Virus record (IMG/VR): IMGVR_UViG_2617270964_000007
Coordinates: 1 to 21,272 of that record
Strand: one strand, 5' to 3'
From: a virus
Lineage: Duplodnaviria > Heunggongvirae > Uroviricota > Caudoviricetes
Length of the DNA stretch: 21,272 nt
This document shows positions 8,448-19,268 of the stretch, one piece after another (the first letter of the stretch is position 1; the number at the start of each line of letters is the position of its first letter). The notes beneath the pieces were generated by a model. It saw nothing but the letters and a program-made list of their open reading frames with translations, was not told the DNA's origin and made no database searches. Made by a program: the position numbers and the translations under genes.

Positions 8448-8720
8448 TTACCTCGCCGTCAGTTGTTTTGATTTCCGGTAGCCTGCCGCGTAAATGGCTA
8501 CGTTTGGCAGGCAAATACTTCCGCTGCATTCATCTGCCTTCTTGCAGCGAAGGCTTCCGAGTGATGCTGCTTTATCTGCTCTGACGCAACCAGAGAGCTT
8601 TAGCGCAATCTTTCGCGCCAGTCGCTGTTCTTGCATTGCCTGTTCACGTTGAGCCTGTCTGCGTGCTCTGCGGCGATTTCTGGCGTTATCGTCAGCCAGA
8701 TATGTAATGACTACTGTCAT
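8448..8720 (-). CDS. N: N-like transcription antitermination protein with arginine-rich motif, 90 aa
   Basis: ATG at 8720 with GGAGGT upstream; the track ORF extends further 5' into the leader. It contains the arginine-rich motif NARNRRRARRQAQREQ near the N-terminus, and the ends (MTVVITY… / …YAAGYRKSKQLTAR) resemble P22 gp24 as I recall it. It is the first gene downstream of pL and nutL. Confidence 0.65.
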   Translation of the reverse strand: MTVVITYLADDNARNRRRARRQAQREQAMQEQRLARKIALKLSGCVRADKAASLGSLRCKKADECSGSICLPNVAIYAAGYRKSKQLTAR

Positions 8721-9031
8721 GTTGACCTCCGATGAAACAACTTTGGAATTGATAGTGATTGCAAAGTGGTTTCTGGCCCCTCGAACTGAGGGGCAGAAAG
8801 AGCATCTCGCCACCTAATAGGTCAATGCTCGGATCGAGAGATTTAATTAACCTCGGTTTTGAAGTTATGCATTCACATAAATCCTCCTGTTGCATGTGCA
8901 GCATTGGCTGTGTTTGGCGGCTGCATTTCGCCTATGGAATTGACTTTGGCGGTGACGCGCCGGGTGCTTATCTTCCGGTTGCCGTCGTGCAGCTGCACTT
9001 CACGTCACCCCAAAGCCAACTACTCTTTGGT

Positions 9032-9240: not shown

Positions 9241-9890
9241 TATGGAAGGTTTGCTAGTTTTGCATCGACAACTACGCCGATGATTTTGCAGTTTCCGTTG
9301 ATCTCGATCATCGGATATTGTGGGTTAAGTGGTTTTAGAAACTTCCTGCCTGCATCAATAACTAACTTCTTGAAAGTTGCCTCGTTTTCTCCTTCGAGCT
9401 TTGCAACTACCAGTTTCCCGTTACGCGGCTCTACTTCAGGATCGACGAGTATTATCATTCCTTCAGGGATACTGAGACCGGCCGGAGCCGTCATTGAGTC
9501 TCCCTTCACGTCCAACCAAAACGAATCTTCTGAACAGTCTACGGTTGTATCGTACCAGTTATCTATTGCACGCTTATGATATGGTTCTACAGCTTCCATC
9601 CAGCATCCTGCGCTCACCCAGCTAATCAGAGGGTATGACCCTCTTGGATCATGCCTACTGTGATAGGCAATGTTTGAAAGACTTTCCTCTCCTTTCATCA
9701 GATAGTCAGGGGAACACTTCAACGCATTAGCCAGGGCGAGAAGATTCTCTCCATTTGGCTCTGTCTCAGAGCGTTCCCACTGAGATATGGCAACATTAGA
9801 CACGCCGACCATCTTTCCAAGTGCGGCCTGCCTGATCTTGAGTTCTTTTCTCCGAGCGCGAATGCGCTCTCCCATCAATTGAGTTTTCAT
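9240..9890 (-). CDS. c2: Phage repressor, P22 C2-type (HTH_XRE N-terminal domain plus LexA-like S24 autopeptidase domain), 216 aa
   Basis: HTH segment LKIRQAALGKMVGVSNVAISQWERSE. The C-terminal domain has the S24 catalytic motif GDSM and a downstream Lys (…VVAKLEG…). The whole protein closely resembles P22 C2 as I recall it. It is divergent from cro across operator sites. Confidence 0.9.
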   Translation of the reverse strand: MKTQLMGERIRARRKELKIRQAALGKMVGVSNVAISQWERSETEPNGENLLALANALKCSPDYLMKGEESLSNIAYHSRHDPRGSYPLISWVSAGCWMEAVEPYHKRAIDNWYDTTVDCSEDSFWLDVKGDSMTAPAGLSIPEGMIILVDPEVEPRNGKLVVAKLEGENEATFKKLVIDAGRKFLKPLNPQYPMIEINGNCKIIGVVVDAKLANLP

Positions 9891-9956
9891 AGTTAAGACA
9901 TCTTAAATAAACTTGACTTAAGATTCCTTTAGTGGATAATTTAAGTGTTCTTTAAT
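9891..9956. promoter_or_regulatory. oR (three 18-bp P22-type operators) with overlapping pR and pRM
   Basis: Three sites fit ANTNAAG-N4-CTTNANT: AGTTAAGACATCTTAAAT (9891-9908), ACTTAAGATTCCTTTAGT (9916-9933) and ATTTAAGTGTTCTTTAAT (9939-9956). pR is read as -35 TTGACT (9913-9918) and -10 GATAAT (9935-9940), pointing at cro (ATG 9971). Confidence 0.75.
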
Positions 9957-9970
9957 TTCGGAGCGAGTCT

Positions 9971-10156
9971 ATGTACAAGAAAGATGTTATCGACCACTTC
10001 GGAACCCAGCGTGCTGTAGCTAAAGCGTTAGGCATTAGCGACGCAGCAGTCTCTCAGTGGAAGGAAGTCATCCCAGAGAAAGACGCCTATCGACTGGAAG
10101 TCGTTACAGCTGGCGCCCTGAAGTATCAAGAAAGCGCTTACCGCAAAGCGGCATAA
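9971..10156 (+). CDS. cro: Cro repressor, P22 Cro-like, 61 aa
   Basis: First rightward gene after oR. HTH segment TQRAVAKALGISDAAVSQW. The length and sequence resemble P22 Cro as I recall it. Confidence 0.85.
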   Translation: MYKKDVIDHFGTQRAVAKALGISDAAVSQWKEVIPEKDAYRLEVVTAGALKYQESAYRKAA

Positions 10157-10162
10157 GCAAAT

Positions 10163-10206
10163 TGCTCTTTAACAGTCATGGTCCTCATTCCCGCCGAAAT
10201 GCGGGA
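10163..10206 (+). promoter_or_regulatory. nutR: nutR: boxA TGCTCTTTAACA (10163-10174) and boxB hairpin (10189-10206), followed by a weak tR1-like hairpin
   Basis: A perfect boxA consensus sits 7 nt after the cro stop. The boxB stem-loop TCCCGCCGAAATGCGGGA is identical to the one in nutL. A GCGCA/TGCGC hairpin with a U-rich tail follows at about 10213-10245. Confidence 0.65.
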
Positions 10207-10264
10207 ATACAACGCGCATCAGTTGGTGCGCATAACTTCTTATTTGTTAAGGAAATACTTACAT

Positions 10265-10543
10265 ATGCAACTTACAAGTACTCGCAAGAAAGCGAATGCA
10301 ATTACAAGCAACATCCTAAATCGAATTGCTGTACGTGGTCAGCGAAAGGTTGCTGATGCATTAGGGATCAATGAATCGCAAATTTCGCGATGGAAAGACA
10401 GCTTTATCCCAAAGATGGCCATGCTTCTGGCTGTGCTGGAGTGGGGTGTTGAAGACAAGGAATTAGCGGAGCTGGCAAAGAAAGTAGCCATGGTGCTGAC
10501 AAAAGAAAAGCCTCAAGACTGCGGCAACAGTTTTGAGGCCTGA
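10265..10543 (+). CDS. c1: CII/C1-like transcriptional activator (lysogeny establishment), 92 aa
   Basis: ATG at 10265 with AAGGAAA upstream; the track ORF starts further upstream at an alternative codon. HTH segment QRKVADALGINESQISRWK. It occupies the cII position after cro-nutR, and 92 aa matches P22 C1 as I recall. Confidence 0.7.
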   Translation: MQLTSTRKKANAITSNILNRIAVRGQRKVADALGINESQISRWKDSFIPKMAMLLAVLEWGVEDKELAELAKKVAMVLTKEKPQDCGNSFEA

Positions 10544-10577
10544 TGTAGAAAGACTGGATCAATCCACAGGAGTAATT

Positions 10578-10739
10578 ATGACAAAACGTCGTAAGAAATA
10601 CCAGGAAAAAGAAGAGATTCGACACCCTGATTCACCTGAGGGATTAGTGGTAGCCGCAGCAAATAACAGGGCGTTCGCAGAGCGCCTTGTTGGTGTTTAC
10701 AGACTAGCCAAAGCAGGAGTGAAACATGGGCGTCGTTAA
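10578..10739 (+). CDS. Small basic hypothetical protein, 53 aa, between c1 and the replication gene
   Basis: ATG at 10578 with CAGGAG 6 nt upstream. Its 3' end overlaps the start of the O-like gene by 14 nt. No family recognised. Confidence 0.35.
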   Translation: MTKRRKKYQEKEEIRHPDSPEGLVVAAANNRAFAERLVGVYRLAKAGVKHGRR

Positions 10740-11547
10740 GTTAGCTGATTACAGGCCTCAACTGGAGGTCGTGGAGCATCGCGTGGCAGATACCGAAGAT
10801 GGTTTCATGCGCGTTGCTAACGAGATTACCGACAGTCTGCTGATGGCTGATTTAACCGTCCGGCAGTTGAAGGTGATGCTCGCTATCATGCGCAAGACAT
10901 ACGGATTCAATAAGCCGATGGATCGACTCACAAACACGCAGATAGCAGCCATGACAGGTATTCATCACACTCATGTTTGCGCTGCTAAGCGCCAGCTTAT
11001 TGAGCGTAAATTCCTCATTGCTGATGGCGTGAAAATCGGAGTGAACAAGGTGGTTTCGCAGTGGATTAGCCAGGACAGCTTAACATTAGCTAAAACAGCT
11101 AATAAAACATTAGCCAAGTCGGCTAATGGGCATAAGCCAAGTCAGCTAAACACAAAAGACAATATACAAAAGACAATAAATACAAATACCCCCTTCCCCC
11201 CTAACGGGGGCGGCGATGGGCAGGTTAAACCTGAACGTCGCAAGGCAGAACGAATCGACTACGAATCCTTCCTGAACGCCTACAACACCGAAGTCGGTGA
11301 CAGACTTCCACACGCTGTTGCGGTCAACGAGAAACGCAAACGCCGCCTGAAGAAAATCATCCCGCAACTGAAAACGCCAAACGTGGACGGTTTCAGGGCG
11401 TATGTCAGGGCGTTTGTGCATCAGGCCAAGCCGTTTTACTTCGGAGACAACGACACGGGCTGGACAGCTGATTTTGATTACCTGTTGAGGGAAGATTCGT
11501 TAACGGGAGTACGGGAAGGGAAGTTTGCAGACAGGGGGATTGCATGA
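10726..11547 (+). CDS. O: Replication initiator, lambda O-like N-terminal DNA-binding domain with a divergent C-terminal domain, 273 aa
   Basis: The N-terminal segment [37 protein letters not shown] resembles lambda O (…DLTKRQFKVLLAILRKTYGWNKPMDRITDSQLSEIT…). The gene contains an iteron/AT-rich origin and is translationally coupled to the helicase gene (ATGA). Confidence 0.85.
11083..11190. repeat. ori: Candidate origin of replication inside the O-like gene: three dyad-symmetric iterons plus an AT-rich unwinding element
   Basis: Iterons TTAGCTAAAACAGCTAA (11086-11102), TTAGCCAAGTCGGCTAA (11110-11126) and AGCCAAGTCAGCTAA (about 11135-11149) sit on a 24-bp phase, each a TTAGC-N7-GCTAA dyad. 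They are followed by AT-rich ACACAAAAGACAATATACAAAAGACAATAAATACAAATAC (11151-11190) and a GC-rich clamp. Confidence 0.55.
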
Positions 11548-12920
11548 GACAGGATATCGAAGCGAGCGTTATCGGTGGCCTGCTGATTGGTGGATTAACT
11601 CCAACCGCCAGTGACGTTCTGGCAACGCTGGAGCCGGAAGCGTTTTCAATTCCGCTCTACCGGAAAGCCTTCGAGGTTATCCGCAAGCAGGCGCGAAACA
11701 GAAACCTAATCGACGCGCTGATGGTTGCCGAGGCGTGCGGAGAGGAGCATTTCACGTCAATCCTGATGACCAGCAAAAACTGCCCGAGTGCCGCAAACCT
11801 GAAGGGATATGCAGGAATGGTCGCGGATAACTATCACCGCCGTCTGGTGCTGGAAATCATGGATGAAATGCGTGAACCAATTCAGAGCGGAACCATCGAC
11901 GCATCGAGTCAGGCGATGGATGAACTTGTAAAGCGTCTTTCAGCCATCAGAAAGCCACGTGACGAGGTTAAACCTGTGCGGTTAGGGGAAATCATCACCG
12001 ACTACACTGACACGCTTGACAGGCGTCTGAGGAACGGAGAAGAGTCAGATACCCTGAAGACCGGAATCGAAGAACTTGACGCTATCACCGGAGGGATGAA
12101 CGCAGAAGACCTGGTGATTATCGCTGCTCGTCCGGGTATGGGGAAAACCGAACTGGCGCTGAAGATTGCCGAAGGCGTTGCAAGCCGCGTTATTCCTGGT
12201 TCTGACGTCCGGCGCGGAGTGTTGATTTTCTCAATGGAAATGAGCGCATTGCAGATTGCAGAGCGAAGCATTGCCAACGCCGGGAGGATGTCGGTTAGTG
12301 TGCTGCGAAATCCTGCAGCGATGGATGACGAAGGCTGGGCGCGCGTTGCTAACGGCATGAGTCAGCTTGCGGATTTGGATGTATGGGTAGTCGATGCCTC
12401 GCGGTTATCGGTCGAAGAAATACGCTCAATCGCAGAACGGCATAAACAGGAAAATCCAAACCTGTCTCTAATCATGGCGGATTATCTTGGCCTGATTGAG
12501 AAGCCGAAAGCAGACCGCAACGACCTAGCAATTGCTCACATCTCCGGAAGCCTGAAGGCGATGGCGAAAGACCTGAAAACGCCTGTTATCTCCCTAAGTC
12601 AGCTTTCGCGCGATGTTGAGAAGCGACCAAACAAACGCCCGACAAACGCAGATTTGCGTGATTCAGGAAGCATTGAACAGGACGCAGACTCAATCATCAT
12701 GCTCTATCGGGAAGCGGTATATGACGAGAACAGTAGCGCCGCGCCATTTGCTGAAATCATCGTGACGAAAAACCGTTTTGGCTCGCTTGGTACGGTTTAC
12801 CAGCGGTTCTGTAACGGACACTTTGTTGCATGTGACCAGGATGAAGCCAGACAGATTTGCACAGCATCAAATGCACCTGCTGCGCGTGGCAGACGATATG
12901 CACAAGGGGCGGACGTATGA
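11544..12920 (+). CDS. DnaB-family replicative DNA helicase (P22 gene 12-like), 458 aa
   Basis: Walker A motif ([15 protein letters not shown]) and a DnaB-like C-terminal RecA-fold region with N-terminal helical domain. It is coupled to the O-like gene, so the phage brings its own helicase rather than a lambda P-type loader. Confidence 0.88.
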
Positions 12921-12945
12921 CCATCTACATCACTGAGTTAATAAC

Positions 12946-12976
12946 AGGCCTGCTGGTAATCGCAGGCCTTTTTATT
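12946..12976 (+). terminator. Rho-independent terminator (tR2-like) between the replication genes and the nin region
   Basis: AGGCCTGC-(5-nt loop)-GCAGGCCT followed by TTTTTATTT, immediately after the helicase stop. Confidence 0.6.
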
Positions 12977-12993
12977 TGGGGGAGAGGGAAGTC

Positions 12994-13434
12994 ATGAAAA
13001 AACTAACCTTTGAAATTCGATCTCCAGCACATCAGCAAAACGCTATTCACGCAGTACAGCAAATCCTTCCAGACCCAACCAAACCAATCGTAGTAACCAT
13101 TCAGGAACGCAACCGCAGCTTAGACCAGAATAGAAAGCTTTGGGCTTGCCTTGGTGACGTCTCTCGTCAGGTTGAATGGCATGGTCGCTGGCTGGATGCA
13201 GAAAGCTGGAAGTGTGTGTTTACCGCAGCATTAAAGCAGCAGGACGTTGTTCCTAACCTTGCCGGGAATGGCTTTGTGGTAATAGGCCAGTCAACCAGCA
13301 GGATGCGTGTAGGCGAATTTGCGGAGCTATTAGAGCTTATACAGGCATTCGGTACAGAGCGTGGCGTTAAGTGGTCAGACGAAGCGCGACTGGCTCTCGA
13401 ATGGAAAGCGCGATGGGGAGATCGGGCAGCATGA
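12994..13434 (+). CDS. ninB: NinB (Orf-family recombination mediator), 146 aa
   Basis: ATG at 12994; the track ORF begins 18 nt upstream at a different start. The translation MKKLTFEIRSPAHQQNAIHAVQQILPD… matches lambda NinB as I recall it. Confidence 0.85.
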   Translation: MKKLTFEIRSPAHQQNAIHAVQQILPDPTKPIVVTIQERNRSLDQNRKLWACLGDVSRQVEWHGRWLDAESWKCVFTAALKQQDVVPNLAGNGFVVIGQSTSRMRVGEFAELLELIQAFGTERGVKWSDEARLALEWKARWGDRAA

Positions 13435-13958
13435 CTATCAAATCAAATACGCCAGCACACGACAAGGACTGCTGGCAAACGCCGCTTTGGCTTTTTGATG
13501 CACTGGATATTGAGTTTGGATTCTGGCTGGATTCGGCAGCGAGCGACAAAAATGCTCTGTGCGCTCACTGGCTAACTGAGGCCGACGATGCGCTCAATTC
13601 TGAGTGGGTAAGCCACGGTGCAATCTGGAATAACCCACCGTACAGCAATATCAGGCCGTGGGTGGAAAAAGCCGCTGAGCAGTGCATACAACAGCGACAG
13701 ACGGTAGTGATGCTTGTGCCAGAGGATATGTCTGTCGGATGGTTCAGCAAGGCTCTGGAGAGTGTTGACGAAGTTCGCATTATCACTGATGGACGGATTA
13801 ATTTTATCGAACCATCGACGGGGCTGGAGAAGAAGGGAAACAGCAAAGGCTCCATGCTGCTGATTTGGCGACCGTTCATCAGTCCTCGACGGATGTTTAC
13901 TACCGTATCCAAAGCGGCATTGATGGCGATCGGGCAGGGTGTCAGGAGGGCTGCATGA
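13431..13958 (+). CDS. Phage DNA N6-adenine methyltransferase (Dam family, NPPY motif)
   Basis: ATG at 13431 overlaps the ninB stop. It contains the catalytic motif WNNPPYS and the conserved WQTP motif near the N-terminus, typical of the phage Dam-family MTases. It sits between ninB and ninC, which are adjacent in lambda. Confidence 0.75.
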   Translation: MTIKSNTPAHDKDCWQTPLWLFDALDIEFGFWLDSAASDKNALCAHWLTEADDALNSEWVSHGAIWNNPPYSNIRPWVEKAAEQCIQQRQTVVMLVPEDMSVGWFSKALESVDEVRIITDGRINFIEPSTGLEKKGNSKGSMLLIWRPFISPRRMFTTVSKAALMAIGQGVRRAA

Positions 13959-14800
13959 TAAATGTCGTTAGTTTCTCAGGTGGCAGGACGTCAGCATATT
14001 TGCTCTGGCTAATGGAGCAAAAGCGACAGGCAGGTGAAGACGTGCATTACGTTTTCATGGATACAGGGGCAGAGCACCCTAAAACATATGAGTTCATCCG
14101 AAATATCGTCAGTAACTGGAAAATAGACTTACATTGCCTTCGTGTAATACCTAATCCAGAAATGGGGAAGGCCAGTAGTTATGAAGAGATAGGTGACAAT
14201 GATATTGGTCCAGATCTTATACCGTGGAAAAGGATGTTAAATAAATACGGACATCCATATATCGGCGGTGCGTTCTGTACCGACAGAATGAAGTCTGTTC
14301 CATTCACCAAATATTGTCAGGAAAAGTTTGGGAAAGGAAATTACATCACATGGCTTGGCATTCGCACAGATGAACCAAACAGGCTTAAAAGGGCTAATGG
14401 TTTTCGGTACCTGGCTGATATAAGCGATTTTGACAAACAGGATGTGCTTGATTGGTGGAGTGGGCAGAAGTTTGATCTTGGCATACAGGAGCATCTTGGT
14501 AATTGTGTTTTCTGTATAAAAAAAAGTATGCAAAAGGTTGCGCTGGCAGCCATGGATGAGCCAGAACTTGCAGATGCATTTATCAACATCCTTGATACAG
14601 AAATAAAAACAGGAAAGGAACCGGTTATGTATCGAGGGAATAATACACTTAAATCACTGATTGCCTTGTTTAGTGATATATCAAGAGATGAGTTAGCCTC
14701 AAGAATGACATCAATGCGACAGTATGATTCAGGTTCGTGTTCTGAATCATGTGAAGCATTTTCATGTCAGCTTGGATTTAATTTTGAGGATGCGGCATGA
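13955..14800 (+). CDS. ninC: NinC, PAPS-reductase-like PP-loop protein, 281 aa
   Basis: ATG at 13955 with AGGAGG upstream. PP-loop motif SFSGGRTS near the N-terminus and cysteine clusters CVFC and [10 protein letters not shown] near the C-terminus. The N-terminus [20 protein letters not shown] resembles lambda NinC as I recall. Confidence 0.8.
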
Positions 14801-14973
14801 GACGACAGCGACGAAGCATCACCGACATCATCTGCGAAAACTGCAAATACCTTCCAACGAAACGCTCCAGAAATAAACGCAAGCCAATCCCAAAAGAATC
14901 TGACGTAAAAACCTTCAATTACACGGCTCACCTGTGGGATATCCGGTGGCTAAGACATCGTGCGAGGAAATGA
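14797..14973 (+). CDS. ninD: NinD-like small protein with CxxC motif, 58 aa
   Basis: ATG overlaps the ninC stop (ATGA). The translation [58 protein letters not shown] is below the 60-aa track threshold and matches lambda NinD as I recall. Confidence 0.6.
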
Positions 14974-14975
14974 CA

Positions 14976-15260
14976 ATGGATTATTCACAGTTAAGTGATT
15001 TTGAAATTAACGTGGCGGTATTCGAAGCCATTCATAACGGATCACCGGATTACAAAGAAGGTGAGAATGGCGCGATGGTGTTTATCTCATTTGAGGGAGA
15101 CATTGTAAACGGAGACGCAGTTGAAGTAGAAGTTGAGCGCGGATCCTTTAACCCATGCGCAAACCCAGCAGACGCATGGCCGATTATTGAAAAATACAGG
15201 ATTAGCATTATCAATCTCGATGAAGACGAGTGGGGGTGCACGCGGTGTGGCCTACTGTAA
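14976..15260 (+). CDS. Hypothetical acidic protein, 94 aa, at the position where lambda carries ninE
   Basis: ATG at 14976 with GAGGAA 6 nt upstream. No family recognised. The C-terminus has a CxxC (CTRCG). Confidence 0.45.
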   Translation: MDYSQLSDFEINVAVFEAIHNGSPDYKEGENGAMVFISFEGDIVNGDAVEVEVERGSFNPCANPADAWPIIEKYRISIINLDEDEWGCTRCGLL

Positions 15261-15335
15261 ATCTAAGCGAGCTATACATGAAAATCCCCTCCGCGCCGCC
15301 ATGATTGTCTTTCTCATGATGCAGAGAATCCAATA

Positions 15336-15515
15336 ATGCTTAGCCCATCCCAATCCATTCAATACCAGAAAGAAAGCGTCGAGCGAGCTTTAACGTGCGC
15401 TAAATGCGGTCAGAAGCTGCATGTGCTGGAAGTTCACGTGTGTGAGCACTGCTGCGCAGAACTGATGAGCGATCCGAATAGCTCAATGTACGAGGAAGAA
15501 GACGATGGTGATTAG
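15336..15515 (+). CDS. ninF: NinF-like small cysteine-rich protein, 59 aa
   Basis: The translation MLSPSQSIQYQKESVERALTCAKCGQKLHVLEVHVCEHCCAELMSDPNSSMYEEEDDGD carries CxxC…CxxCC (a zinc-ribbon-like pattern) and resembles lambda NinF as I recall. It falls below the track length cutoff. Confidence 0.6.
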   Translation: MLSPSQSIQYQKESVERALTCAKCGQKLHVLEVHVCEHCCAELMSDPNSSMYEEEDDGD

Positions 15516-15897
15516 CCGATACGGAAAAATAACGTTTAAACATTTTCAAGACAATCCAACATGGGCTGCTGCGGCTGGATATGACTTTAATTATTTTGAT
15601 TGTCTGTCAGTCGCATGTATTGCAACTACCAATGTTGCTAACAACATAATCGATGAATTCTTGGATTTTCCAGACTATCAGGTCAGAGAGTTGCCTGCAT
15701 TTTTTGTGAAAGTATCTGTTGCTACAGCTCTGTTATTTATTTTGTTATTCGCATATCCATTGCTTGCCGTATTTGTTTATGTGAGATGCAAGCACTCACA
15801 AAATGAATACACCGGAGAGCATACCGATATTACCAGCCAAAATATGCGAGTGTGGTTGAGGAGATGCCAAGAGAAATGGGGGAGAAGTCATGGCTAA
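15505..15897 (+). CDS. Hypothetical membrane protein, 130 aa, one predicted transmembrane helix, moron-like
   Basis: ATG at 15505 overlaps the ninF stop, with GAGGAAG upstream. The hydrophobic segment FFVKVSVATALLFILLFAYPLLAVFVYV is followed by a basic stretch. The gene is AT-rich and has no counterpart in the lambda nin region as I recall it. Confidence 0.5.
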   Translation: MVISRYGKITFKHFQDNPTWAAAAGYDFNYFDCLSVACIATTNVANNIIDEFLDFPDYQVRELPAFFVKVSVATALLFILLFAYPLLAVFVYVRCKHSQNEYTGEHTDITSQNMRVWLRRCQEKWGRSHG

Positions 15898-16180
15898 CCT
15901 ACGCAAAGAAGCGCGCGGAAGAGAATGCCAGGTACGTATTTACGGCATATGCAATGGAAATCCTGAAACTACAGTTCTGGCACATTACCGGATGGCTGGA
16001 ATTTGCGGAACGGGAATGAAACCTGACGACCTGATCGGCGCATGGGCTTGTAGTGACTGCCACGCGGAGATCGACCGACGCACAAGGATTCTCGACAACA
16101 AAGACGCCAGACTTTACCACCTCGAAGGCGTGATCAGGACGCAGGCGATACTGCTGAAGGAGGGGAAGATTAAGTCATGA
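15890..16180 (+). CDS. DUF1364 / YbcO-like putative metal-binding nuclease, 96 aa
   Basis: Cys/His pattern C-x7-C…H…C…C-x3-C-x2-H as in DLP12 YbcO. It lies immediately upstream of rusA, as ybcO does in DLP12. Confidence 0.7.
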   Translation: MANLRKEARGRECQVRIYGICNGNPETTVLAHYRMAGICGTGMKPDDLIGAWACSDCHAEIDRRTRILDNKDARLYHLEGVIRTQAILLKEGKIKS

Positions 16181-16539
16181 ACGAATATCAGTTTGTGCTT
16201 CCATACCCGCCGTCGGTGAACACCTACTGGCGAAGACGGGGAAGCCAATACCACATCAGCGATAAAGGCCAGAAATACCGAAAAGACGTTCAGCAAATCA
16301 TCCGCCAACTTAAGTTAGACATTTTCACCAAATCACGACTCCGCATCAAAGTCATCGCAGACGTTCCAGACTCCCGCCGCCGCGACCTCGACAACATCCT
16401 GAAAGGTTTACTCGACTCCCTTATCCACGCCGGATTTGCGGAAGACGACGAGCAATTCGATGACATTCGCGTAATTCGTGGTGTGAAAGTACCAGGCGGA
16501 CGGCTTGGAATAAAAATCACCGAACTGGAGAACGTATGA
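16177..16539 (+). CDS. rusA: RusA-family Holliday junction resolvase (NinG-position endonuclease), 120 aa
   Basis: Conserved RusA segments: PPSVNTYW near the N-terminus, the catalytic-aspartate region DVPDSRRRDLDNILKGLLDSL, and the GGRLGIKITEL C-terminus. Confidence 0.85.
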   Translation: MNEYQFVLPYPPSVNTYWRRRGSQYHISDKGQKYRKDVQQIIRQLKLDIFTKSRLRIKVIADVPDSRRRDLDNILKGLLDSLIHAGFAEDDEQFDDIRVIRGVKVPGGRLGIKITELENV

Positions 16540-16724
16540 ACGCCACAATTCAAACGATACCAGAGCTTCTTATCCAGACACGAGGCAATCAGACCGAAGT
16601 GGCGAGGATGCTTTCCTGCGCAAGAGGAACAGTGCTCAAGTACAACCGAGACAGCAAAGGCGAGCGTCATGTAATAGTTAACGGCGTCCTGATGGTCAAA
16701 CAGGGCAAGAGGGGAAGACGATGA
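16536..16724 (+). CDS. ninH: NinH-like small DNA-binding protein, 62 aa
   Basis: The translation …GNQTEVARMLSCARGTVLKYNRD… resembles lambda NinH (…GNQTEVARRLKCSRGTVRKY…). It is translationally coupled between rusA and Q. Confidence 0.65.
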   Translation: MNATIQTIPELLIQTRGNQTEVARMLSCARGTVLKYNRDSKGERHVIVNGVLMVKQGKRGRR

Positions 16725-17344
16725 GACTCGAAAGCGTAGCTAAATTTCATTCGCCAAAAAGCCCGATGATGAGCGACTCACCACGGGCTACGGCTTCTGA
16801 CTCTCTTTCCGGTACTGATGTGATGGCTGCTATGGGGATGGCGCAATCACAAGCCGGATTCGGTATGGCTGCATTCTGTGGTAAGCACGAACTCAGCCAG
16901 AACGACAAACAAAAGGCTATCAACTATCTGATGCAATTTGCACACAAGGTATCGGGGAAATACCGTGGTGTGGCAAAGCTCGAAGGAAATACTAAGGCAA
17001 AGGTACTGCAAGTGCTCGCAACATTCGCTTATGCGGATTATTGCCGTAGTGCCGCGACGCCGGGGGCAAGATGCAGAGATTGCCATGGTACAGGCCGTGC
17101 GGTTGATATTGCCAAAACAGAGCTGTGGGGGAGAGTTGTCGAGAAAGAGTGCGGAAGATGCAAAGGCGTCGGCTATTCAAGGATGCCAGCAAGCGCAGCA
17201 TATCGCGCTGTGACGATGCTAATCCCAAACCTTACCCAACCCACCTGGTCACGCACTGTTAAGCCGCTGTATGACGCTCTGGTGGTGCAATGCCACAAAG
17301 AAGAGTCAATCGCAGACAACATTTTGAATGCGGTCACACGTTAG
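16721..17344 (+). CDS. Q: Late-gene antiterminator Q, lambda-type, 207 aa
   Basis: The translation MRLESVAKFHSPKSPMMSDSP… with the zinc-binding CRDCHGTG…CGRCKG region matches lambda Q as I recall. It is followed by the lambda pR'/qut/tR' sequence. Confidence 0.9.
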   Translation: MRLESVAKFHSPKSPMMSDSPRATASDSLSGTDVMAAMGMAQSQAGFGMAAFCGKHELSQNDKQKAINYLMQFAHKVSGKYRGVAKLEGNTKAKVLQVLATFAYADYCRSAATPGARCRDCHGTGRAVDIAKTELWGRVVEKECGRCKGVGYSRMPASAAYRAVTMLIPNLTQPTWSRTVKPLYDALVVQCHKEESIADNILNAVTR

Positions 17345-17386
17345 CAGCATGATTGCCACGGATGGCAACATATTAACGGCATGATA

Positions 17387-17425
17387 TTGACTTATTGAAT
17401 AAAATTGGGTAAATTTGACCCAACG
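17387..17425 (+). promoter_or_regulatory. Late promoter pR' with overlapping qut site (Q-utilisation)
   Basis: -35 TTGACT (17387-17392), a 17-nt spacer and -10 TAAATT (17410-17415), with the transcription start near 17422. The sequence is essentially the lambda pR' region. Confidence 0.75.
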
Positions 17426-17615
17426 ATGGGTTAATTCGCTCGTTGTGGTAGTGAGATGAAAAGAGGCGGCGCTTACTACCGATTCCGCCTAGTTGGTCAC
17501 TTCGACGTATCGTCTGGAACTCCAACCATCGCAGGCAGAGAGGTCTGCAAAATGCAATCCCGAAACAGTTCGCAGGTAATAGTTAGAGCCTGCATAACGG
17601 TTTCGGGATTTTTTA
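17422..17615 (+). ncRNA. Lambda-type 6S RNA (short pR' transcript terminated at tR' in the absence of Q), about 194 nt
   Basis: The distance from the predicted pR' start to the end of the tR' U-run is 194 nt, the known size of lambda 6S RNA. The two track ORFs over this region (17456-17650, 17489-17773) are therefore not called as coding. Confidence 0.6.
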
Positions 17616-17616
17616 T
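17556..17616 (+). terminator. tR' intrinsic terminator
   Basis: A long imperfect hairpin AATCCCGAAAC…GTTTCGGGATT is followed by TTTTTTAT (U-run 17609-17616). Confidence 0.7.
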
Positions 17617-18020
17617 ATCTGCACAACAGGTAAGAGCATTGAGTCGATAATCGTGAAGAGTTGGCGAGCCTGGTTAGCCAGTGCTCTTTCCGTTGTGCTG
17701 AATTAAGCGAATACCGGAAGCAGAACCGGATCACCAAATGCGTACAGGCGTCATCGCCGCCCAGCAACAGCACAACCCAAACTGAGCCGTAGCCACTGTC
17801 TGTCCTGAATTCATTAGTAATAGTTACGCTGCGGCCTTTTACACATGACCTTCGTGAAAGCGGGTGGCAGGAGGTCGCGCTAACAACCTCCTGCCGTTTT
17901 GCCCGTGCATATCGGTCACGAACAAATCTGATTACTAAACACAGTAGCCTGGATTTGTTCTATCAGTAATCGACCTTATTCCTAATTAAATAGAGCAAAT
18001 CCCCTTATTGGGGGTAAGAC

Positions 18021-18344
18021 ATGAAGATGCCAGAAAAACATGACCTGTTGGCCGCCATTCTCGCGGCAAAGGAACAAGGCATCGGGGCAATCCTTGCGTT
18101 TGCAATGGCGTACCTTCGCGGCAGATATAATGGCGGTGCGTTTACAAAAACAGTAATCGACGCAACGATGTGCGCCATTATCGCCTGGTTCATTCGTGAC
18201 CTTCTCGACTTCGCCGGACTAAGTAGCAATCTCGCTTATATAACGAGCGTGTTTATCGGCTACATCGGTACTGACTCGATTGGTTCGCTTATCAAACGCT
18301 TCGCTGCTAAAAAAGCCGGAGTAGAAGATGGTGGAAATCAATAA
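18021..18344 (+). CDS. S: Class I holin S with dual start (S107 antiholin / S105 holin)
   Basis: The translation [20 protein letters not shown]… carries the Met1-Lys2-Met3 dual-start motif and three hydrophobic segments. It matches lambda S. Confidence 0.9.
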
Positions 18345-18804
18345 TCAACGTAAGGCGTTCCTCGATATGCTGGCGTGGTCAGAGGGAACTGATAACGGAC
18401 GACAGAAAACCAGAAATCATGGTTATGACGTCATTGTAGGCGGAGAGCTATTCACTGATTACTCCGATCACCCTCGCAAACTTGTCACGCTAAACCCAAA
18501 ACTCAAATCAACAGCAGCCGGTCGCTATCAGCTTCTTTCCCGTTGGTGGGATGCCTATCGTAAGCAGCTTGGCCTGAAAGACTTCTCTCCCAAAAGCCAG
18601 GACGCTGTGGCATTGCAGCAGATTAAAGAGCGTGGCGCTTTACCGATGATTGATCGCGGTGATATTCGTCAGGCTATCGACCGTTGCAGCAATATCTGGG
18701 CTTCACTTCCGGGGGCTGGTTATGGTCAGTTCGAGCATAAGGCTGACAGCCTGATTGCAAAATTCAAAGAAGCTGGCGGAACGGTCAGAGAGATTGAGGT
18801 ATGA
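18328..18804 (+). CDS. R: Endolysin R (lytic transglycosylase), 158 aa
   Basis: The translation [26 protein letters not shown]… matches the lambda R family, with the catalytic Glu in the WSEGTD context. It overlaps the S 3' end as in lambda. Confidence 0.9.
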
Positions 18805-19268
18805 GCAGAGTAACCGCGATTATTTCCGCTCTGGTTATCTGCATCATCGTTTGCTTGTCATGGGCTGTTAATCATTACCGTGATAATGCAATCGCCTACA
18901 AAGAACAGCGCGATAACAAGGCCAGTGAACTGGAGAAGGCGAACGCCACCATTACTGACATGCAGCAACGCCAGCGTGCTGCTGATGCACTCGATGCTAA
19001 ATACACGAAGGAGTTAGCTGATGCGAAAGCTGAAAATGATGCTCTTCGGCGCAAGCTTGATAATGGTGGCAGGGTGCTCGTCAAAGGAAAATGCCCTGTG
19101 CCATCGTCAGCCGAAACCTCCGGCGCCTCCGGCATGGGCAATGATGCCACCGTCGAACTCTCTCCAGTTGCTGGACGAAACGTTCTCGATATCCGGGACG
19201 GAATTATCCGCGACCAAACAGCACTGAGAACGCTTCAGGAATACATTAGGACGCAATGCCTTCGATGA
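18801..19268 (+). CDS. Rz: Spanin inner-membrane subunit Rz (i-spanin), 155 aa
   Basis: N-terminal transmembrane helix ([18 protein letters not shown]) followed by a coiled-coil periplasmic domain. The N-terminal half is lambda-like and the C-terminal third diverges from lambda Rz as I recall it. Confidence 0.85.
19021..19227 (+). CDS. Rz1: Spanin outer-membrane lipoprotein Rz1 (o-spanin), embedded in the +1 frame of Rz
   Basis: Signal peptide with lipobox (…LIMVAGC) followed by a proline-rich mature region ([14 protein letters not shown]). It lies entirely within Rz in a different frame. Confidence 0.7.

Follow-up and report, generated by a model that had tools for sequence, protein, structure and literature searches.

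A rare PHROG 2638 gene for a predicted inner-membrane protein in the nin mosaic of a lambdoid prophage

Results

Gene content and boundaries at the locus

The DNA analysed here (the window, meaning the whole stretch of 21,272 nucleotides) is a lambdoid prophage adjoining proA and tRNA-Thr(CGU). Its gene order begins with integrase, Ea22-like, gp157, RecT, N, cI, cro, cII, O and DnaB; after the nin genes come Q, the S holin gene, an ORF for a putative endolysin, Rz and Rha. Pfam matches in the nin region run from Dam through a PAPS-reductase-type NinC homologue, NinE, NinX and NinF to ORF130, and continue with YbcO, RusA, NinH and Q. ORF130 (15505..15897, + strand) has an ATG start and 130 codons plus stop, and is a PHROG 2638 gene. 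Its 5′ neighbour is ninF (15336..15515, + strand; Pfam NinF, E = 2.2e-11) and its 3′ neighbour is ybcO, or DUF1364 (15890..16180, + strand; Pfam YbcO, E = 1.2e-43).

ORF130 overlaps the genes on both sides. Its ATG at 15505 lies within the 3′ end of ninF, so that the start of ORF130 and the stop of ninF overlap by 11 nt (left junction, 15505..15515, + strand, ATGGTGATTAG), and a Shine-Dalgarno sequence, GAGGA (15492..15496, + strand), is found in the ninF 3′ end 8 nt 5′ of that ATG. These features bear out the coupling to ninF proposed in a preliminary description of the locus; lambda ninG has the same ribosome-binding context upstream. At the other end, the TAA stop (15895-15897) is overlapped by the start of ybcO, whose ATG is at 15890, in an 8-nt right junction (15890..15897, + strand, ATGGCTAA). 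Exceptionally tight packing with overlapping stop and start codons has been described for nin genes (PMC8022706), a pattern that both ORF130 overlaps fit.

The gene is AT-rich, as had also been pointed out. Its GC content is 0.394 and its GC3 0.366, compared to 0.49-0.52 and 0.55-0.57, respectively, for ninF, ybcO, rusA and ninH, and a sliding GC profile falls to 0.38-0.405 over 15500-15899. Its low GC3 suggests that the E. coli allele was acquired fairly recently from a lower-GC phage pool. Among homologues, GC3 broadly follows that of their own locus, with values of 0.54-0.59 in phages of ∼50% GC and 0.24 in a Proteus phage.

Three lines of evidence identify ORF130 as a real gene, not a chance ORF. 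The product matches phrog_2638 over its full length (E = 1.3e-54; residues 8-127 on positions 1-120 of the 120-position profile), relatives with as little as ∼20% identity share its architecture, and comparison with a 57%-identical copy from Buttiauxella gives a pN of 0.286, below the pS of 0.776. By this last measure ORF130 is under purifying selection. Six close alleles are identical across residues 9-56 and the membrane helix, and their substitutions fall at K8, D57 and R94 and in the C-terminal tail. RefSeq already catalogues the protein and its relatives (WP_000237093 and others) as hypothetical proteins.

Transcriptional context

A homologue of N is encoded at 8448-8813, and a pR-like promoter (TTGACT-16-GATAAT; 9913..9940, + strand) lies 5′ of cro. 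The gap between DnaB and NinB contains a strong intrinsic terminator (12946..12977 including the T-run, + strand; 12946-12969 in the scan), which is identical at 32 of 32 positions to lambda 40596-40627 in the ren/ninB gap. This gap is the position of tR2 in lambda, and we take the terminator of the window to be tR2 as well. ORF130 lies 2.5 kb downstream of this tR2-type terminator and upstream of Q (16721-17344) on the same strand, and thus also before the pR′-like late promoter that follows Q on its 3′ side (17387..17415, + strand). In a simple consensus scan, which weak or non-sigma-70 promoters may escape, the pR-like promoter was the only + strand promoter-like site within 9800-17386. A consensus scan for + strand terminator-like sites found none between 12969 and its end at 18100. 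On the − strand, a promoter-like site (15870->15841) and a terminator-like site (15830->15809) inside ORF130 were rejected as being within chance expectation.

Given its overlaps with both neighbours and this layout of terminator and promoters, ORF130 is a cistron inside the delayed-early, N-dependent portion of the pR operon. We infer that its transcription needs N antitermination, which would restrict synthesis of the protein to lytic growth and induction and leave the resting lysogen without it; the tR2-type terminator upstream argues against expression from a repressed prophage. The identity and regulation of ORF130 as described here are well supported, and we hold them with high confidence.

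The preliminary description had labelled the gene a moron, a class whose definition is said to go back to Juhala et al. in 2000. Part of this label stands: like HK97 gp15 and the lambda genes bor and lom, ORF130 is an extra gene between genes that adjoin each other in lambda, and its base composition is deviant. Unlike morons, however, it comes with neither a promoter-like nor a terminator-like site on the + strand, it overlaps both neighbours, and its expression from the prophage is not predicted. Judged by the consensus scan, ORF130 lacks the feature that defines a moron, namely an autonomous transcription unit, and would not count as a classical one.

A slot with alternative cassettes between ninF and ybcO or ninG

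In lambda, NinF (42269-42439) directly overlaps NinG (42429-43043) and no gene lies between them, in line with the preliminary description. When 5426 complete E. coli genomes were searched with a 1.3-kb query spanning the ORF130 region, 1829 matched, but only three of them over at least 80% of the query length. Across the 1829 genomes the flank homology ends at query position 409 (window 15508), at the ORF130 start codon, and restarts at query position 791 (window 15890), at the ybcO start codon. Most of these flank-sharing genomes are missing ORF130, as is lambda; at a nucleotide identity of at least 95%, the gene is present in 37 of the 5426. Among the matches listed, it has NinF upstream and DUF1364/YbcO or NinG downstream. 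The nin regions of related prophages therefore differ by presence or absence of the gene, with breakpoints at gene boundaries.

The occupants of the slot were read from an evenly spaced sample of the 1829 matches. It may be empty, with NinF followed by NinG, or it may hold small hypothetical genes, KilAC antirepressors, HNH endonucleases or ORF130. Of the small genes, two were examined: one encodes the basic, 70-aa phrog_3973 protein and the other the 89-aa phrog_1258 protein. Both lack a transmembrane segment, and among the occupants examined ORF130 alone has one. The cassettes share an ATG inside the end of ninF and the terminal octamer ATGGCTAA, which combines the stop of the cassette with the start of the next gene and closes the 70-aa and 89-aa cassettes too. 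Both ybcO and ninG start with this octamer, and the same eight nucleotides form the ninF/ninG junction of lambda. Slot cassettes appear to be exchanged by recombination at these conserved start/stop overlaps, and on the evidence of its sampled contents ORF130 is one of several swappable alternatives. The earlier picture of a one-gene insertion is correct relative to lambda, but the insertion is not a one-off, given that the slot carries alternative cassettes and the family recurs there.

This recurrence extends well beyond the close alleles. In lambdoid phages, members of the family at 47-99% identity are located at or beside the ninF/ninG(ybcO) junction. With X standing for the family member, the Buttiauxella copy (57% identity) has the order NinF-X-YbcO-RusA and a copy on a JGI contig (55% identity) the order NinX-...-X-NinG, while 12 IMG/VR loci at 47-57% identity adjoin NinF or NinE upstream of NinG or YbcO. 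The P22-like Klebsiella phage phiKp_30 carries ORF130 ahead of a Rha/KilAC protein, after which comes DUF1364. Because copies as distant as 47-57% identity occupy the same neighbourhood, the family is, by this comparison, a long-standing resident of the junction.

ORF130 thereby resembles the optional nin genes of lambdoid phages (ninA-ninZ of lambda and P22, and KilAC/Roi-type insertions), which it matches in lying between tR2 and Q within the delayed-early operon of pR, in its start/stop overlaps, and in a presence/absence polymorphism with gene-boundary breakpoints. Unlike the lambda nin set, it has no named lambda counterpart, and we know of no named nin counterpart in P22. Since position, overlap and polymorphism all agree with this class, ORF130 is on these comparative grounds one of the accessory cassettes that make up the nin mosaic of lambdoid phages; its protein family is PHROG 2638. 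The lambda nin region is dispensable, and the same would be expected of ORF130 by analogy.

Predicted features of the protein

Conservation among 36 family members is greatest over residues 9-35 (15529..15609, + strand), where the motif reads T-F-K-H-F-x-D-x-P-x-W-A-A-A-A-G-Y-D-F-N-Y-F-D-C-x-S. Within it, P18 and G25 do not vary, and F14, A21 and Y26 each reach at least 92% conservation. The next most conserved elements are V-R-E-L-P, encoded 5′ of the hydrophobic helix, and P-F-x-F...G...Y within the helix, a pattern present in the hydrophobic segment of most members. Hydropathy predicts a transmembrane helix at residues 70-93 (15712..15783, + strand, VSVATALLFILLFAYPLLAVFVYV), the sole strong hydrophobic segment of the protein, with a 19-residue Kyte-Doolittle mean of up to 2.61. 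All 36 members have a hydrophobic segment (19-residue Kyte-Doolittle mean 1.3-2.8), which is at the equivalent position in 34 of them. The part N-terminal to it is acidic in ORF130 (net −4). It is followed by a basic tail of 37 residues (94-130; 15784..15894, + strand) with 7 K/R and a net charge of +3, so that the succession of one strong transmembrane segment and a basic tail is as first described. The tail includes a predicted amphipathic helix at residues 108-126 (hydrophobic moment 0.37); it is the most variable part of the protein among close alleles, and in distant members it is poorly conserved, shorter or absent.

An AF2 model built from 10 sequences (pLDDT 83, pTM 0.68) contains a beta-hairpin at residues 2-9 and helices at 11-16, 18-23, 30-53, 60-101 and 108-126. 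The predicted transmembrane helix falls within the 42-residue helix 60-101. Modelled by itself, the N-domain (residues 1-63) gave a poor result, with a pLDDT of 58.6. The fold of the N-domain is uncertain, since so few sequences went into the model and the isolated domain scored so low. A helix-turn-helix-like reading of the A21/G25 pattern was dropped, in view of this pLDDT and the acidic character of the would-be recognition helix.

Summed over the 36 members, the 15-residue flanks of the hydrophobic segment hold 72 K+R on the N side versus 150 on the C side, and 99 D+E on the N side versus 61 on the C side. ORF130 itself has 2 K/R in each flank within 15 residues and no signal peptide, and to export an N-tail of ∼69 aa carrying 5 K/R without one would be demanding. 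The family-wide excess of K+R on the C flank favours an N-out/C-in topology, which we consider somewhat more probable than the reverse; the basic C-tail would then be cytoplasmic and the acidic N-domain of ∼65 aa periplasmic. The ORF130 protein is described here as a predicted single-pass inner-membrane protein.

Small size, one transmembrane domain and a charged, basic C-terminus (7 K/R) together make up the generic description of a holin, and ORF130 might on that account be a holin-like, antiholin-like or lysis-timing factor. While it does share with holins at least one transmembrane domain and the charged C-terminus, it differs from them in lying outside the late lysis cassette. It is 2.1 kb upstream of that cassette, and its position before Q and pR′ means that it would be made early. 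The window already encodes an S-type holin (18021-18344), a putative endolysin ORF (18328-18804; no Pfam match) and Rz (18801-19268). Moreover, searches of Pfam, holin families included, returned no match for the ORF130 protein or for 36 relatives, and the family is found away from lysis genes in other phages too. A role in lysis is thus very improbable.

Distribution of the family and function searches

A word-indexed search of 5.8 billion proteins returned 12 relatives of ORF130, and 44 were found at E ≤ 1e-3 when 1.84 billion cluster representatives were searched exhaustively with a profile. Nearly all of the latter are 76-134 aa long; three longer ones match through the hydrophobic/tail region only. 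All 36 aligned relatives match phrog_2638 as well, for which the listed function is unknown. A pattern scan of 185,579 species-representative genomes found seven loci, all in Enterobacterales (Dryocola, Pseudocitrobacter, Xenorhabdus, Escherichia and Morganella), and members were found only in phages of this order. By these searches PHROG 2638 is a rare family that has already been catalogued. Its rarity, extending to 37 of 5426 E. coli genomes, and its lack of a known role speak against the outcome that would have refuted the preliminary description, namely an ordinary and widespread nin gene whose role is known.

Relatives at 33-40% identity occur in a Yersinia phage, in P1-like phage-plasmids, on a metagenomic contig and in Proteus Gorganviruses. 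In the Yersinia phage vB_YenS-P840 the gene is located among recombination genes (RecT-type and ExoVIII) and Dam. The metagenomic copy is accompanied by RdgC, Lar and Dam, and that of the Gorganviruses lies between exonuclease and primase genes in a cluster that also includes a helicase. Gorganvirus PM-CJR has been reported to be lytic and to have no integrase or repressor genes (PMC8539402). The relative in vB_YenS-P840 is misnamed ‘conotoxin’ and the Gorganvirus one ‘ribonucleotide reductase large subunit’. The P1-like phage-plasmids that carry a relative include SJ46 and RCS47, and a plasmid search gave 257 records, mostly non-mobilizable and, among the matches listed, mostly 85-100 kb in size. 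All the contexts inspected place the gene in a compact operon of small early genes that share its orientation.

IMG/VR was scanned with a 10-sequence alignment, and neighbour clustering of the resulting 77 loci revealed no universal partner gene. Neighbours are instead lineage-specific: NinF, NinG and YbcO in lambdoid phages, and phrog_1258 together with a 310-aa protein in P1-like elements, where the phrog_1258 gene precedes the PHROG 2638 gene.

Searches for function were negative. The ORF130 protein had no NCBIfam match, and none of the PADLOC defence models matched it at E ≤ 1. The only matches in the family libraries were below threshold, to the hydrophobic families ATP synthase c (15.5 bits, cut-off 120) and LapA, and these reflect the transmembrane helix. 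A sequence-profile search of the PDB gave no match below E = 0.96. Fold searches, three in all, yielded no lead to function; that of BFVD gave no annotated match. Literature searches on the RefSeq accessions, the PHROG number and phiKp_30 found no papers.

Discussion

ORF130 is best described as one of the exchangeable accessory genes of the lambdoid nin region. Relatives are found in the early replication/recombination clusters of a Yersinia phage, of P1-like phage-plasmids and of Gorganviruses, from which we infer a role in the lytic cycle.

A different role would be that of a moron-type defence gene, expressed from the prophage and protecting the lysogen through abortive infection, superinfection exclusion or toxicity. 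A predicted membrane protein, encoded by an AT-rich gene of foreign composition with a rare, patchy distribution in a hypervariable slot, would suit this, and in the decayed prophage of E2348/69 the ORF130 copy is intact despite rusA and Q having become pseudogenes. However, ORF130 is not flanked by any + strand promoter-like or terminator-like site in the scans, overlaps its neighbours and lies downstream of a tR2-type terminator. The PADLOC models gave no match, and relatives occur in a phage reported to be lytic (PMC8539402) and always within early operons. Its position in the operon, the lack of flanking promoter-like or terminator-like sites and the presence of the family in lytic-reported phage make defence of the lysogen unlikely.

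The genomic neighbourhood could alternatively hint that, by analogy with phi29 p16.7, the protein tethers phage DNA replication or recombination to the membrane, with the basic cytoplasmic tail binding DNA or a nin recombination protein. The family is embedded among genes of this kind, whether NinF, NinG, YbcO and RusA in lambdoid phages, RdgC, Lar and Dam on the metagenomic contig, RecT-type and ExoVIII genes in the Yersinia phage, or helicase, exonuclease and primase in the Proteus phage; the tail is basic and its predicted helix amphipathic. Yet the tail is the least conserved part of the protein, being short or absent in distant members, and the part that is conserved is the acidic N-domain, which is predicted to lie outside the cytoplasm. 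Early operons carry accessory genes of all kinds, making the neighbourhood weak evidence, and a constant partner gene is lacking. Such a tether seems improbable.

There is a precedent for early phage membrane proteins of this size. The phi29 protein p16.7 is a 130-aa early membrane protein that binds DNA, and both it and SPO1 gp56 are early membrane proteins of Bacillus phages, with an N-terminal anchor, that act in replication organisation or cell division. ORF130 is like them in its size class, its single transmembrane segment and its early position near genes for DNA metabolism or host takeover. It is unlike them in that its anchor is C-proximal, and no homology to them was detected.

Another precedent is offered by T4 Imm and Sp, small early membrane proteins that exclude superinfecting phage. 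ORF130 is likewise small, with predicted location in the inner membrane and predicted synthesis early in lytic growth, and lytic-cycle exclusion would fit both this expression pattern and a periplasm-facing domain. Pfam includes an Imm superinfection-immunity family; in contrast to the parallels in size and timing, ORF130 has no sequence or fold similarity to Imm or Sp (Pfam, BFVD).

Hypervariable accessory slots of early operons often carry anti-defence genes, and the protein could thus be a counter-defence factor that neutralises a membrane-associated effector or sensor of host immunity during infection. The patchy distribution of the family is consistent with this, as is the proximity of Lar and Dam-type anti-restriction functions in several contexts, but the protein has no similarity to known anti-defence proteins. 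We consider counter-defence, for which the argument is one of context, rather unlikely.

Taken together, the explanation we favour is as follows. ORF130 is an optional delayed-early (nin) cistron in the pR operon of a lambdoid prophage at tRNA-Thr(CGU)/proA, and its product would span the inner membrane by its hydrophobic helix. The conserved N-domain and the Pro/aromatic/Gly pattern of the helix may bind a component of the envelope, belonging either to the host or to the entry machinery of a competing phage, and the outcome would be a non-essential fitness function in the infected cell. That ORF130 encodes a non-essential, lytic-cycle, inner-membrane accessory factor with an envelope target is an explanation to which we give roughly even chances. 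The likeliest roles for such a factor would be to block secondary infection during the lytic cycle, following the logic of T4 Imm and Sp, or to modify a function of the host envelope or of division. Exclusion of secondary infection is a tentative assignment, and takeover of the host envelope or of division is equally so; any single cellular role is at this point a guess, and none goes beyond that tentative level.

A broader reading of the family is similarly speculative. PHROG 2638 may possibly represent a new class of early inner-membrane effectors with a fold not represented among solved structures, in which the conserved periplasmic N-terminal motif WAAAAGYDFNYFDC acts on an envelope target of Enterobacterales in superinfection exclusion or counter-defence, perhaps together with phrog_1258. 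Members of the family occur in lambdoid phages, in Proteus Gorganviruses and in over 250 P1-like phage-plasmids.

Conclusions

As it stands, ORF130 is an ordinary case of the mosaic make-up of lambdoid phages, being an optional gene within a stretch of the nin region known to be hypervariable. Its modest value is that of a small, well-delimited candidate with a sharply conserved N-terminal motif, found in Enterobacterales phages of three very different lifestyles. Natural isogenic variants with and without ORF130 exist at the slot, and a phenotype, if one were found, would reveal what a family carried by hundreds of P1-like phage-plasmids does.

Mosaic structure of the prophage

The mosaic prophage next to proA and tRNA-Thr(CGU) has no whole-length representative among the 5426 complete E. 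coli genomes searched, no one of which covers more than 64% of window 1-21272 at a single place. An intrinsic terminator at 12946-12977, 5′ of the nin region, is identical at 32 of 32 positions to lambda 40596-40627, which sits between ren and ninB. The flanking genes nevertheless differ, with a DnaB-type helicase here and P plus ren in lambda. Within the nin region, the PAPS-reductase-type NinC homologue (13865-14800; GC 0.426, GC3 0.394) is, like ORF130, AT-rich relative to its neighbours, making it a second nin gene of foreign composition. Translation of this gene probably begins not at the listed TTG but at an ATG at 13955, which overlaps the Dam stop. Further downstream, the late-leader region between Q and the S holin (17345-18020, ∼680 bp) contains a pR′-like promoter (17387-17415, plus strand). 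Its ORFs are all short (43-94 aa, on both strands), and no tRNA or Rfam family was found within it.

ORF130 and its relatives

A 99.7% identical copy of ORF130 (15505-15897, plus strand) is found in a decayed prophage of E. coli E2348/69 (NC_011601, 730389-742781). There, ninF is duplicated, with an HNH pseudogene separating the two copies, rusA carries an internal stop, the antiterminator gene is truncated and lpxR has been inserted; ORF130 is intact despite this surrounding decay. Family members also occur in Yersinia phage vB_YenS-P840 (ORF53, L003:4998-5357, positions being those within the comparison locus) and Proteus phage Isfahan (L014:4001-4354). These proteins (117-119 aa) bear spurious database names, ‘conotoxin’ in the Yersinia phage and ‘ribonucleotide reductase large subunit’ in the Proteus phage.

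On the minus strand inside ORF130, a promoter-like site (15870→15841) is directly followed by a terminator-like hairpin (15830→15809). Such sites are no more numerous in this region than expected from shuffled sequence, and in some cases fewer, so this antisense pair is probably a product of chance.

Alternative occupants of the slot after ninF

In the E. coli HS prophage, the slot between ninF and ybcO is filled by a phrog_1258 gene (L008:705-974) as an alternative to ORF130. A phrog_1258 gene, with a product of 86-89 aa, also lies directly 5′ of an ORF130-family gene in P1-like phage-plasmids (approximately 30 of 80 IMG/VR loci), as in Salmonella phage SJ46, where phrog_1258 (L004:4731-4991) adjoins the family member (L004:4998-5372). 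The two genes are alternates in lambdoid phages and linked in P1-like ones.

The octamer ATGGCTAA, formed by the stop of the upstream gene and the start of ybcO or ninG, is located at 15890-15897 in the window and at the equivalent junctions in the comparison loci L002, L007, L008 and L015. It is common to lambda and three different cassettes and looks like the short stretch of homology through which cassettes are swapped.
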